Part shown: positions 7,249 to 26,906 of the stretch, in pieces | Layout: every line of letters starts with the position of its first letter | How positions within the stretch are numbered: the first letter of the stretch is position 1 | Source of the DNA: Candidatus Cryptobacteroides sp. | GTDB taxonomy: Bacteria; Bacteroidota; Bacteroidia; Bacteroidales; UBA932 | NCBI GenBank assembly: GCA_045600405.1 | Contig: JAZRXV010000142.1 | Span: 15,261 to 79,260, forward strand | DNA: 64,000 bases | Direction of reading: 5' to 3' | Program-made: the position numbers and the translations under genes | Notes under the pieces: generated by a model | Seen by the model: the letters and a program-made list of their open reading frames with translations, nothing else | What the model was told of the DNA's origin: nothing | Database searches by the model: none

Positions 7249-7308
7249 GGCGTTACCGATGACGATGTCACATACATCATAGAAACCATCAAAAAAGCTA
7301 TAGCATAA
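7249..7308 (+). pseudogene. Relic C-terminus of a second DegT-type aminotransferase
   Basis: GVTDDDVTYIIETIKKAIA* resembles the end of the 5236-6522 protein (LSDEDVLYVIESLVEALKG*); in-frame stop at 7213 and no ATG upstream. Confidence 0.45.
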
Positions 7309-7313
7309 TTACT

Positions 7314-7454
7314 ATGGACAAGAAAGAACAGGAAAATACTCAGGTCAAGACTTGGATCTGTTCAGTGTGCGGCTATGAGCATGTCGGCACCGAGCCGCCG
7401 AAGAAATGCCCCAAGTGCGGGGTTGAGGCGATTTATTTCGACTCGGCTGACTAG
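7314..7454 (+). CDS. 46-aa stand-alone rubredoxin-like protein (short-spaced CxxC-x12-CxxC)
   Basis: Manual translation MDKKEQENTQVKTWICSVCGYEHVGTEPPKKCPKCGVEAIYFDSAD*; below the ORF-track cutoff. Confidence 0.8.
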   Translation: MDKKEQENTQVKTWICSVCGYEHVGTEPPKKCPKCGVEAIYFDSAD

Positions 7455-7467
7455 GTCATGGTGCGTG

Positions 7468-7556
7468 AGATTGCGGGTCGTTGCCCGCAATGACGCCTCC
7501 TACGTTGCCCGCAACGATGCTTCTTTAGGTACCTGCAATGACGTCTCTTTCGGTAC
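7468..7556. repeat. REP-like palindrome plus 3 tandem 24-bp units (array 1)
   Basis: AGATTGCGGGTCGTTGCCCGCAATGAC hairpin; units at 7480-7503, 7504-7527, 7528-7551. Confidence 0.9.
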
Positions 7557-7567
7557 GAAGTTCATGT

Positions 7568-7597
7568 TGTAATAGTAAAATATTACATATAACTTTG
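7568..7597 (+). promoter_or_regulatory. Promoter (-7 TAACTTTG) with a 7-6-7 palindromic operator candidate for the HTH gene
   Basis: TGTAATA-gtaaaa-TATTACA at 7568-7587; TAACTTTG at 7590-7597; ATG 4 nt later. Confidence 0.6.
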
Positions 7598-7601
7598 GGG
7601 T

Positions 7602-8366
7602 ATGAATTCGATTTATTTTGAAGAAAAAGGAGAGGCGCTCCTGGAGAAGATTGGGATGCCGAAGGCGGAGTTTGCCCGTAGGATGGGCATTCAGCGGCAG
7701 AATGTGAGGGTGCTATTCAAGAGCAAGGACCTCAGGGTGATCCGGCGGGCCGCGGATGTGATGGGGGTGCCGTGGATATTTCTGGTGGGCTATGCGGAAG
7801 AGCAGGATATATATCAGCTCCCGATTCCTTCTTACGAGGAGTATCTGGATTTTGCGAGGAAGTATCCGGACGAATTTGATGTTCAGGGGGATGATACCTG
7901 CGACGAGTCTTTTGAAATCGAGCCTGAGGACATTCCGACAGGAGACAGTGTTGAGGATAGGAGGGTAAGGCAGAAGATTATCTTCAGATTCTATAGGCAC
8001 TGGCGTGAAGTTCATCCGGAAATGAGGATGTTCAATGATAGCCTTGGAGACTGGATCTATGTGAGACATATATCCGTTGACGAGACAGCGGGACACGCTT
8101 CTTTGACTTATCTCTCAACGCTGGCTGTATTACAACTGGATACTATTTTGAGAGATGCTGTATATGTGGGAGAGAAGGCGGCAAGGAGTGAAACCAAGAA
8201 TCAGAGGTTGTTTACAAAGATGATTCAACTTAGACATACACTTCCCGGGATTGGCCGTGTAAGATTGATGGTAGGCGTGAAAAAGCAGGATGATACCAAA
8301 GTGCAATACTGTATCACTTCAATTGATGCTATGTTGATGGCAAAAAACAAGGCAGCCTCGAATTGA
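7602..8366 (+). CDS. XRE-type HTH fused to a putative BECR-fold (LPD3/PBECR-like) domain
   Basis: N-terminal GMPKAEFARRMGIQRQNV HTH; acidic linker; C-terminal alpha/beta domain ETAGHAS...LAVLQLDTILRDA...VRLMVGV...QYCIT; fold assigned by resemblance only. Confidence 0.55.
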   Translation: MNSIYFEEKGEALLEKIGMPKAEFARRMGIQRQNVRVLFKSKDLRVIRRAADVMGVPWIFLVGYAEEQDIYQLPIPSYEEYLDFARKYPDEFDVQGDDTCDESFEIEPEDIPTGDSVEDRRVRQKIIFRFYRHWREVHPEMRMFNDSLGDWIYVRHISVDETAGHASLTYLSTLAVLQLDTILRDAVYVGEKAARSETKNQRLFTKMIQLRHTLPGIGRVRLMVGVKKQDDTKVQYCITSIDAMLMAKNKAASN

Positions 8367-8374
8367 GACCGCCT
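8342..8374 (-). terminator. Intrinsic terminator overlapping the last codons of the 7602-8366 gene
   Basis: Minus strand AGGCGGUCUC-aauuc-GAGGCUGCCU followed by UGUUUUUU. Confidence 0.7.
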
Positions 8375-8470
8375 GTAGATTTGCCCACGTGAGCGGAACT
8401 GCTTCAGGAGCCAGGGCAACGTGTGCGGGACTTCGCGCTTTCATCGTAAGCCCATCCACTCTCACGATTT
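8342..8470 (-). ncRNA. Candidate ~130-nt structured small RNA convergent with the HTH-BECR gene
   Basis: Minus-strand TATCTTTG at 8475-8482; terminator at 8342-8374; internal helices whose A-C mismatches on + become G-U pairs on -. Confidence 0.55.
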
Positions 8471-8474
8471 GTTG

Positions 8475-8482
8475 CAAAGATA
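8475..8482 (-). promoter_or_regulatory. Bacteroidetes -7 element TATCTTTG with no plausible protein gene downstream
   Basis: caaagata on the + strand. Confidence 0.6.
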
Positions 8483-8510: not shown

Positions 8511-9170
8511 ATGAACATACACATCATATACACAATCATTTTTGTGCTGCTCATTGCACTGGAGTTGCTATATTTCCGCATTGCGGATCATTTTAACATC
8601 ATCGATAAGCCCAACGAGCGGTCTTCTTACTCGAAGGTGGTGCTCCGGGGTGGAGGTGTTATCTTTGCGCTTTGTTTTTGGGTGTGGAGTGCCTTTTTCG
8701 GCTTCCATTATCCGTGGGCGCTGGTGGCTGTGACGCTGGCGGCCGGAATTTCGTTTGTGGATGACACCCGTTCGCTGCCTGACAGTGTGCGGCTGGTGGT
8801 GCAACTGGTGGCAATGATGCTGCTGTTCGTGGAACTGGGCATTATGCAGTGGTCAATGTGGTGGGTGGTGCTAATCGCGCTGTTCGTGAGTGTTGGTGCG
8901 ACGAACATCATCAACTTCATGGATGGTATAAACGGTATCACGGGTGGTTATTCGCTGGCGGTGCTGGTGCCTGTGTTTTTGGTGAATAGATTGCGGGTCG
9001 TTGCCCGCAATGACGCCTCCTACGGTACCCGCAATGACGCCTCCTACGTTGCCCGCAACGATGCTTCTTTAGGTACCTGCGATGGCGCCTCTTTCGGTAC
9101 CTGCAATGACGCCTCCTTCATTTCCCCGAAGGGGGCTTGTTCGTTTCTTCAGGCAGTTTCCTATTATTGA
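8511..9170 (+). pseudogene. Truncated WecA/MraY-family (glycosyl transferase 4) UndP GlcNAc-1-P transferase
   Basis: IIDKPNERSS..RGGG, SFVDD, NIINFMDGING present; then a 44-codon repeat insertion and a stop; C-terminal half (F-x-GD-x-G motif) absent. Confidence 0.75.
8988..9119. repeat. REP-like palindrome plus 5 tandem 24-bp units (array 2), in frame within wecA
   Basis: Same 12-bp leader as 7468; units start at 9000, 9024, 9048, 9072, 9096; encodes (VARNDASY)-like octapeptides. Confidence 0.9.
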
Positions 9171-26484: not shown

Positions 26485-26529
26485 GCGTCGCTGATGCAAA
26501 TGCGGCTGCGTGCTGAGTCTTTGGAATAA

Positions 26530-26852
26530 GGCCGGGCCGTAAGCCGGTTTCTGTTTTTGAATTCGTCATTTATCTTCGCAACCTACCCCCTGGCATCGGG
26601 CGGGCAGCCCTCATCTGCCAGTATATTTGGTTTTGCAGGTCCCGGTGCCGTACTCCCCGCACATCGCTGTACGGAGCCGTGGGCTCTTGCCCCACGTTTT
26701 CACCCTTGCCGCGCTGAAACGCCCTTGCGGGCTCGCCCGGCGGTTGTTTTCTGTTACGGCTTGCCTGAGGTTACCCCCATCTGCGCTTTCCGCAGCGGGA
26801 TGCCCTTCCCTGTCCGGACTTTCCTCTCATATGAGCGACGAATCGCCCGGCC
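26530..26852 (-). ncRNA. rnpB: RNase P RNA (type A)
   Basis: Minus strand GAGGAAAGUCC ... GGGUGAAA ... ACAGAAACCGGCUUA; complementary ends; promoter TATCTTTG at 26871-26878. Confidence 0.95.
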
Positions 26853-26906
26853 TTTATTTCAAAGAGTTTGCAAAGATAGTCCTTTTCCTTGATGCGGCAA
26901 AAGGCA

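Follow-up and report, generated by a model that had tools for sequence, protein, structure and literature searches.

A helix-turn-helix protein with an LPD3-like domain and a convergent structured RNA form a candidate RNA-inhibited toxin module in Bacteroidales

Within a 64,000-nt stretch of a Candidatus Cryptobacteroides sp. contig (the window, at its full length), we describe a self-contained cassette of two genes and about 0.9 kb, at positions 7568-8482, in which the gene for a predicted RNase with a fused DNA-binding domain faces a convergent gene for a structured non-coding RNA (Table 1). Protein gene and RNA gene together are a self-contained two-gene module, and we assign a probability of roughly 0.55 to the reading in which the RNA inhibits the nuclease domain by binding it, toxin synthesis is kept down by the HTH, and a loss of RNA supply frees the toxin. 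The HTH-fused LPD3/BECR-fold protein would then be a toxic RNase, held inactive by a small RNA that is labile, is made continuously and binds the protein by its shape, docking on the nuclease domain either as a mimic of its substrate or as a plug of the active site. The HTH would meanwhile repress the toxin promoter via the palindrome. A cell that lost the cassette, or whose transcription was shut off by a phage, would release the nuclease, with addiction or abortive infection as the outcome. As for the target of the nuclease, the nearest folds hint weakly at tRNA or ribosome-linked RNA.

Table 1. Positions of cassette features, numbered from the first nucleotide of the window
Feature	Positions	Strand	Basis
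Inverted-repeat operator, GTAAW-N8-WTTAC type	7568..7587	.	HTH-linked occurrence
Bacteroidota -7 box, 4 nt before the ATG	7590..7597	+	TAnnTTTG consensus
254-aa gene: Xre HTH, acidic linker, LPD3-like BECR-fold domain	7602..8366	+	ORF and homologues
Xre/Cro-type HTH, aa ~3-66	7608..7799	+	structure match to DdrO HTH
LPD3-like domain, aa 102-244, predicted RNase	7905..8333	+	model and structure matches
Candidate active-site His165	8094-8096	+	residue conservation
Candidate active-site Thr239	8316-8318	+	residue conservation
Intrinsic terminator of the small RNA, stem 8374-8350, U-tract to 8342	8342..8374	-	sequence
Structured non-coding RNA, class I, predicted ~130 nt	8342..8470	-	model R1, covariation
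Pseudoknot: loop 8431 and 8429-8427 with 3' tail 8386-8383	8383..8431	-	93.3% paired
Closing helix P2/P3: 8466-8455 with 8397-8388	8388..8466	-	87% paired, two-sided changes 6/9
Short hairpin P6, three-way junction	8401..8411	-	80-87% paired
Arm P4/P5: 8453-8450 with 8417-8414	8414..8453	-	82.5% paired
Arm P4/P5: 8447-8445 with 8421-8419	8414..8453	-	92.0% paired
Arm P4/P5: 8436-8435 with 8426-8425, closes the pseudoknot loop	8414..8453	-	100% paired
Bacteroidota -7 promoter box of the small RNA, TATCTTTG	8475..8482	-	115/121 loci vs 53/1,411 control ORFs

The RNA gene has both ends of a transcription unit, and its own ends were placed from the positions of promoter and terminator. TAnnTTTG is the -7 promoter consensus of Bacteroidota in the available portion of PMC7366714, and this box lies on the minus strand 50-260 nt past the end of the domain in 115 of 121 distinct loci (what remained of 149 loci that include the C-terminal end of the domain once 28 had been dropped as duplicates or for having less than 200 nt of flank). 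The plus strand carries it past the domain end in 43/121, and in the control a convergent box followed 53 of 1,411 ORFs of at least 250 aa from the same genome. At the other end, the final ~25 nt of the ORF are shared with the RNA terminator, and a run of at least 5 U in 8 nt was present on the RNA strand in all 72 distinct class I loci and on the mRNA strand in only 20, so that the mRNA may read through its weak terminator and overlap the whole RNA in antisense. A preliminary description, made from the letters of the window, had proposed a minus-strand box and a terminator overlapping the last codons, and both the sequence and the 115/121 loci agree with it. No RNA run contained as much as half of the sampled words; in four of the nine runs listed, assembled contigs of relatives span the cassette together with the predicted RNA start, and are silent on strand and ends.

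Searches for something already known, or for something coding, came back empty at this position. Across the window, Rfam 15 matched only RNase P RNA, elsewhere (class A, 26524-26854, minus strand); a further Rfam scan gave two chance matches, neither on the RNA, and Rfam 15 run on 14 loci spanning the RNA classes found tRNA and tmRNA only. The preliminary description had named as checks an Rfam scan and a search for a conserved RNA downstream of homologues: the former places no known family on the RNA, and the latter finds an RNA that is present and covarying. No conserved ORF was found in the RNA, and a small-peptide antitoxin was rejected because there is no such ORF and the core lengths fall in all three frames. 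Nor is there an immunity ORF 3' of the protein gene, a place that the RNA gene occupies.

Taken alone, the window RNA folds modestly better than its shuffles (z -2.29 for the minus strand and -1.20 for the plus), and it matches model R1 at 8368-8476 with 58.1 bits, the window being part of the R1 training set. The class I fold was built from a MAFFT alignment of 48 RNAs, with the structure taken from mutual information and inspection. In it, P1, P2 and P3 close a three-way junction with a P4/P5 arm and the hairpin P6, and a pseudoknot joins the P5 loop to the 3' tail; the junction has invariant bases, and G-U pairs are frequent on one strand. Across the 48 relatives 89.0% of the positions concerned are paired, with two-sided changes in 20/30 pairs, a score reached by 0/500 shuffles and compared with 30-48% pairing in slid controls, all for related sequences and a structure scored on the alignment from which it was derived. 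RNAalifold recovered 4 pairs only, those of the pseudoknot helix, and none of the nested stems. The column pair 41-67, in the P4/P5 arm, has the second-highest corrected mutual information and the highest of any that base-pairs, and the pseudoknot helix shows two-sided changes in 3/5 family pairs, with U8430 bulged. Both arms of the outer helix P1, present in most relatives, are missing from the window and from L001-L003.

This fold keeps part of what had first been drawn. The long closing helix (8466-8455 with 8397-8388) stands as originally placed, being 87% paired with 6/9 two-sided changes, while two shorter helices of the preliminary description, possible in this sequence, fall to 62.0% and 61.2% pairing over the 48 relatives and were given up. 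A pseudoknot, which it had drawn with one of the two, does exist (93.3% paired), but with the partners of these helices exchanged. The knot also no longer serves as a hallmark of the system, as several clades use plain hairpins without an evident one. It is the RNA fold, not complementarity to the mRNA, that is under conservation: outside the overlap the longest RNA-mRNA complement was 7.31 nt against 7.22 nt in shuffles (58 loci). An RNA acting in trans as antisense was rejected, there being no excess of complementarity over shuffles in those 58 loci.

Pairing of gene and RNA is, as far as the sequenced loci indicate, nearly obligatory. Among 105 distinct intact genes, the convergent promoter is strict in 102; in L126 it is a variant, the RNA being intact; and L048 has its RNA upstream, on the same strand as the gene, with no other RNA copy present in the 5.7-kb locus. 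An intact RNA is thus adjacent in 104/105, L041 being the sole intact gene with a truncated RNA. Where the gene is broken or partial, promoter and RNA are kept in 14/16 cases and lost in 2/16. Model R1 gave 15 matches in 13 of 80 genomes, 10 of them beside a family gene, 2 orphan and 3 at contig ends. The clear orphans are L161 and L163, in which the RNA survives without the gene, as antitoxins do; the apparent orphans L165, L170 and L172 were discounted for their position at contig ends. Second RNA copies occur in L015 and L058, and in L023:247-450 and L048:2243-2450 a class I RNA is fused behind tRNA-Ala(GGC), upstream of the gene. The 3' end of the tRNA is duplicated beyond the cassette in L023, which suggests that this cassette integrated at the tRNA. 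At L163:800-1620, the orphan class I RNA is convergent on a HicAB toxin-antitoxin pair.

The convergent layout also invites a type I-like reading, in which the mRNA would read through, the RNA would pair with its 3' end and cause decay or transcriptional interference, and the fold would just stabilise the RNA. Type I loci are typically convergent and overlap at their 3' ends: in txpA/ratA and bsrG/SR4 the genes lie tail to tail with a short 3' overlap and a convergent antitoxin RNA. The genes of the module are likewise tail to tail with a short 3' overlap, the RNA terminator covering the last codons and the mRNA-strand U-tract being good in just those 20 of 72 loci. A cis-antisense RNA, however, would have no need of a conserved pseudoknot and invariant junction bases, nor is complementarity outside the overlap in excess. 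Orphan, duplicated and upstream same-strand copies of the RNA are kept as well, and at L048, where the RNA is upstream and on the same strand, no cis-antisense action is possible. Most of the type I toxins known so far are small peptides, whereas the module protein is a folded, enzyme-like product of 254 aa beside an RNA with a conserved tertiary fold. We regard antisense action as an unlikely account of the module.

More distant homologues keep the promoter, position and terminator, with RNA folds that differ. Class II RNA (16 sequences) forms a three-way junction of ~60 nt, possibly with a pseudoknot at the 5' end, and further clades have hairpins with conserved internal loops, in two copies in L129, L153 and L157. 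Mapped on the protein tree, RNA class changes label 9 times against 31.2 times when shuffled, on a quick version of that tree, which shows clustering only and in which cut-off loci such as L102 are labelled class I by default. This suggests that RNA class tracks protein clade, as cognate pairs would and as linkage or kinship alone also can. An HTH-less paralogue in the same genome (L115; G000 contig C47 13343-13750) has a class II RNA with the three-way junction, the possible 5' pseudoknot and ~130 nt of extra leader ahead. In L170:1400-1558, which ends at a contig edge, one promoter precedes a class II and then a class I RNA, possibly an array of mixed antitoxins.

With Pfam LPD3, 16 of 251 genomes yielded 22 matches in all, and 15 were left once four already-seen loci, one false match and two matches internal to a 3,158-aa protein had been taken out. 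All 15 of these gene-terminal LPD3 domains (from 11 Bacteroidales genomes; loci L173-L179, L181-L183, L188, L189 and L192-L194, with L182 a MuF fusion) have a convergent box 108-201 nt further on, where local background predicts ~2.1/15, the size of the search window having been picked after the data were seen. Each is accompanied by a short hairpin RNA with a U-tract, and five have two tandem units. Where LPD3 is internal to giant phage-type polyvalent ORFs, TAnnTTTG occurs in frame on the reverse strand ~126-136 nt past the domain in 3/4 related loci (polyvalent-ORF loci L180:1501-2030, L209, L210, L211 and L190, those of L211 and L190 being one-letter box variants seen by eye); these boxes possibly represent RNA genes hidden in coding sequence.

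A broader generalisation can be put forward tentatively, as a guess somewhat more apt to fail than to hold: LPD3-type RNase domains of Bacteroidota, and perhaps all PBECR domains, would have RNA immunity as a rule, each domain with its own convergent antidote RNA, the fold of which is re-invented clade by clade. The unit would then appear in solo, HTH-fused and MuF-fused genes, as in-frame antisense promoters within giant phage proteins, and in the form of RNAs, orphan or arrayed, that guard against incoming toxins. Were this rule true, a large family of phage and chromosomal effectors would gain the immunity factor it has been missing, and these RNA antitoxins would form a class of their own, unrelated to type III.

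Alternatively, the RNA could be a positive subunit that the BECR domain needs, a scaffold, activator or sensor, with the ribonucleoprotein as the working enzyme. Near-obligate pairing and a complex conserved fold would both be expected of such a subunit, as would a promoter-like box kept in frame past LPD3 in giant phage proteins (3/4 loci). On the other hand, the RNA has no variable guide-like segment with an mRNA target, its folds vary between pseudoknotted junctions and single hairpins, and a pure activator would hardly be expected to persist once its gene has decayed or to occur as an orphan, as this RNA does, so that we hold a positive role to be rather improbable.

On the protein side, the model of the LPD3-like domain (pLDDT 96.5) has an N-terminal helix followed by a sheet of 4-5 strands, as in BECR-fold RNases. 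Against 48,161 solved chains, all of the ten matches that VIA-align ranks highest for it are RNases or toxins of the BECR type, namely BrnT, two CdiA-CTs, two RelE, YxiD, a Salmonella TA toxin, colicin D, MqsR and 3ao9, which we take to be colicin E5. These matches are individually weak (Z 4.0-4.8, none reaching Z 5; rmsd 3.0-4.8; 73-83 aligned). Neither Foldseek nor a sequence (HMM) search of the PDB returned anything significant with the domain, and fold searches with the full-length protein gave HTH matches only, the HTH itself aligning with that of DdrO at VIA-align Z 8.8 (rmsd 2.2, 63 aligned) and matching Pfam HTH_3 weakly (E 0.19). The best viral-model match of the domain is an LPD3 protein (E 8.9e-6). 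With Pfam LPD3 (PF18798) the window protein scores 14.9 bits, under the 27-bit cut-off; 33/40 homologues match at E<=0.05, 5/40 pass the cut-off, and a paralogue in its own genome scores 28.1 bits. A profile comparison with a true LPD3 gave E 0.0015 at probability 17, and no PADLOC, PHROG or NCBIfam model was matched by more than 1/63 family members. The LPD3/PBECR-like assignment made in the preliminary description is thus borne out by LPD3 matches in homologues, the top viral match and the BECR structural matches; of the fold comparisons made for this domain, Foldseek lends it no support and the VIA-align top ten do.

Residue conservation was assessed in 101 representatives of less than 70% identity. 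R123, N145, E161, T173, Q201 and Y236 are conserved at 94-100%, 91% have Thr or Ser at position 239, and position 165, in the first helix of the domain, is His in 62% and K/Q/R in 28%, the His being not invariant. A helix His with a terminal-strand Thr/Ser is the active-site pattern of PBECR domains in the available text of PMC5512222, and colicin-like toxins have a His in the pre-core helix (bioRxiv 10.64898/2026.08.28.747851, as far as that text was accessible); the pattern at positions 165 and 239 appears to fit both. From the structure matches and this residue pattern, RNase activity of the BECR-like domain is predicted. The same HTH is also joined to other C-terminal domains (L101, L103, L110, L113; DUF1016_N in P0179 and ORF6N in P0249), and P0153 and P0265 have an LPD3-like domain joined to methyltransferase-like regions, fusions that look like modular swapping.

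Upstream of the gene, the plus-strand palindrome, box and 254-aa ORF of the preliminary description were found as placed when the sequence was re-read, and from the position of the box the mRNA is probably leaderless or near-leaderless. The operator occurs in 75 of 78 HTH-fused loci and in 0/38 loci without the HTH (counted over loci with at least 450 nt upstream, not deduplicated), with a spacer of 8 nt in 64/64 distinct cases. It is likely the binding site of the fused HTH, and its presence with the HTH and absence without it points to autoregulation of the protein gene. An operator of its own would also suit a non-toxic, RNA-sensing regulator, with the BECR domain a dead RNA-binding module and the HTH controlling transcription according to the RNA; His165 is replaced in 38% of representatives, and RNA binding has been proposed for an inactive PBECR (PMC5512222, available text). 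Yet many members without an HTH keep the RNA (40 loci), and the six polar residues named above are conserved almost throughout, which makes a purely regulatory protein quite improbable in our view.

If the RNA does inhibit the nuclease, the closest functional parallel would be type III toxin-antitoxin systems, for which the available part of PMC5086642 describes RNA inhibition of a toxin protein in three families with one shared layout, defined by an antitoxin that is upstream, co-transcribed, set off from the toxin gene by a terminator and tandemly repeated in short units. Like ToxIN/AbiQ, CptIN and TenpIN, the module combines a predicted endoribonuclease with a cognate non-coding RNA and no protein antitoxin. 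The RNA has a pseudoknot (shown for class I, possible for class II, and larger than the simple H-type), and some loci have tandem RNA units (L129, L153, L157 and several LPD3 loci). Unlike the type III antitoxins of that description, the module RNA is downstream and convergent with its own promoter (on the opposite strand in 115/121 loci, with an upstream same-strand copy in L023 and L048 only) and forms one ~130-nt multi-helix unit with no repeat family inside the cassette. The protein is LPD3/BECR-like with a fused HTH and operator, and some clades have plain hairpins. No Pfam, PADLOC or NCBIfam match of the module protein was to ToxN, CptN or TenpN, and no type III toxin is among the best 50 VIA-align matches of the domain. 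The preliminary description had judged the layout to be unlike canonical type III, and the downstream convergent RNA without tandem short repeats agrees with that. The module would work like type III but differs from it in layout and in having no tandem short repeats.

With LPD3 (PF18798) and PBECR domains of polyvalent and MuF proteins, as set out in the accessible text of PMC5512222, the module shares sequence and structure similarity, the His and Thr/Ser pattern and the occurrence in solo and fused forms; it differs from them in that its clade is chromosomal, HTH-fused and mostly under the Pfam cut-off. With the colicin-like and RelE-like BECR toxins (colicin D/E5, CdiA-CT, YxiD, BrnT, RelE, MqsR) it shares the helix and antiparallel sheet and a candidate pre-core His. 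The examples in the available part of bioRxiv 10.64898/2026.08.28.747851 are neutralised by proteins, whereas the module has an RNA gene instead of an immunity ORF. The accessible text of PMC5512222 treats LPD3 as a domain of unknown function and gives no RNA partner or immunity factor for it, and none of the consulted portions of PMC5512222, PMC5576092, PMC8040213, bioRxiv 10.64898/2026.08.28.747851 and 10.64898/2026.09.22.753630 has an LPD3/PBECR RNA partner. A literature search that stopped short of most subscription journals found no paper describing one. The RNA family and the protein-RNA pairing appear to be undescribed, and some of the motifs may be listed in the supplements of PMC8040213, which hold thousands of candidate RNAs.

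If the proposed inhibition is true, a BECR RNase under the control of a convergent, separately transcribed RNA would be an independent solution to the RNA-inhibited toxin, and several unrelated RNA folds serving one protein family would offer a natural model of RNA-protein co-adaptation. The RNA would also be a testable partner for LPD3 and a route to its function, and the whole unit, at 0.9 kb, lends itself to simple toxicity, rescue and cognate-swap tests.

Homologues number 1,161 at E<=0.001 and similar length among 1,463 candidates. By genome, any match (including HTH-only and weak ones) was found in 53/301 of the host family, with 4/400 in the order outside that family, 8/121 in a second family and 0/400 among other genomes drawn from the phylum. 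A tblastn search of phage and plasmid collections gave no family match, and viral contigs held no relative of the protein family and none of the L179 domain; 14 RNA-motif matches in viral contigs were rejected as chance, with no gene nearby. The unit is patchy and often broken, like an accessory module. Neighbouring ORFs matched PADLOC models in 22 of 120 cases against 1/51 for window genes, a comparison that covers 120 of 211 neighbour ORFs, includes some housekeeping look-alikes and uses an unmatched control.

The nearest named relatives are Candidatus Cryptobacteroides and Bacteroidales assemblies. In three relatives whose protein is 83-90% identical, the genes around the cassette are unrelated, so the link of the cassette to a polysaccharide locus is incidental. 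An empty site was not found, the sole relative with the downstream wecA gene having a different upstream gene. That the segment acts as DNA, the end or attachment site of a mobile cassette with an outward element promoter, is very improbable, for although the cassette is patchy, has unrelated neighbours and in one case sits at the 3' end of a tRNA-Ala, accompanied by a short duplication, its promoter, body and strand-polar terminator make up a full transcription unit in 72/72 class I loci, its G-U pairs are frequent on one strand, and the unit has no recombinase.

Three further observations concern the immediate surroundings in the window. Just upstream of the cassette, at 7308-7454, lies a rubredoxin-like ORF of 48 aa (PF21349, E 5.3e-13). 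Downstream, at 8511-9170, a WecA/MraY-like gene of 219 aa, compared with 350 aa in one relative, runs into a repeat array with a period of 24 nt (8988-9124). The same 24-nt-period repeat recurs at 7468-7556, with short matches on other contigs, and is likely a REP-like element that broke the WecA/MraY-like gene.
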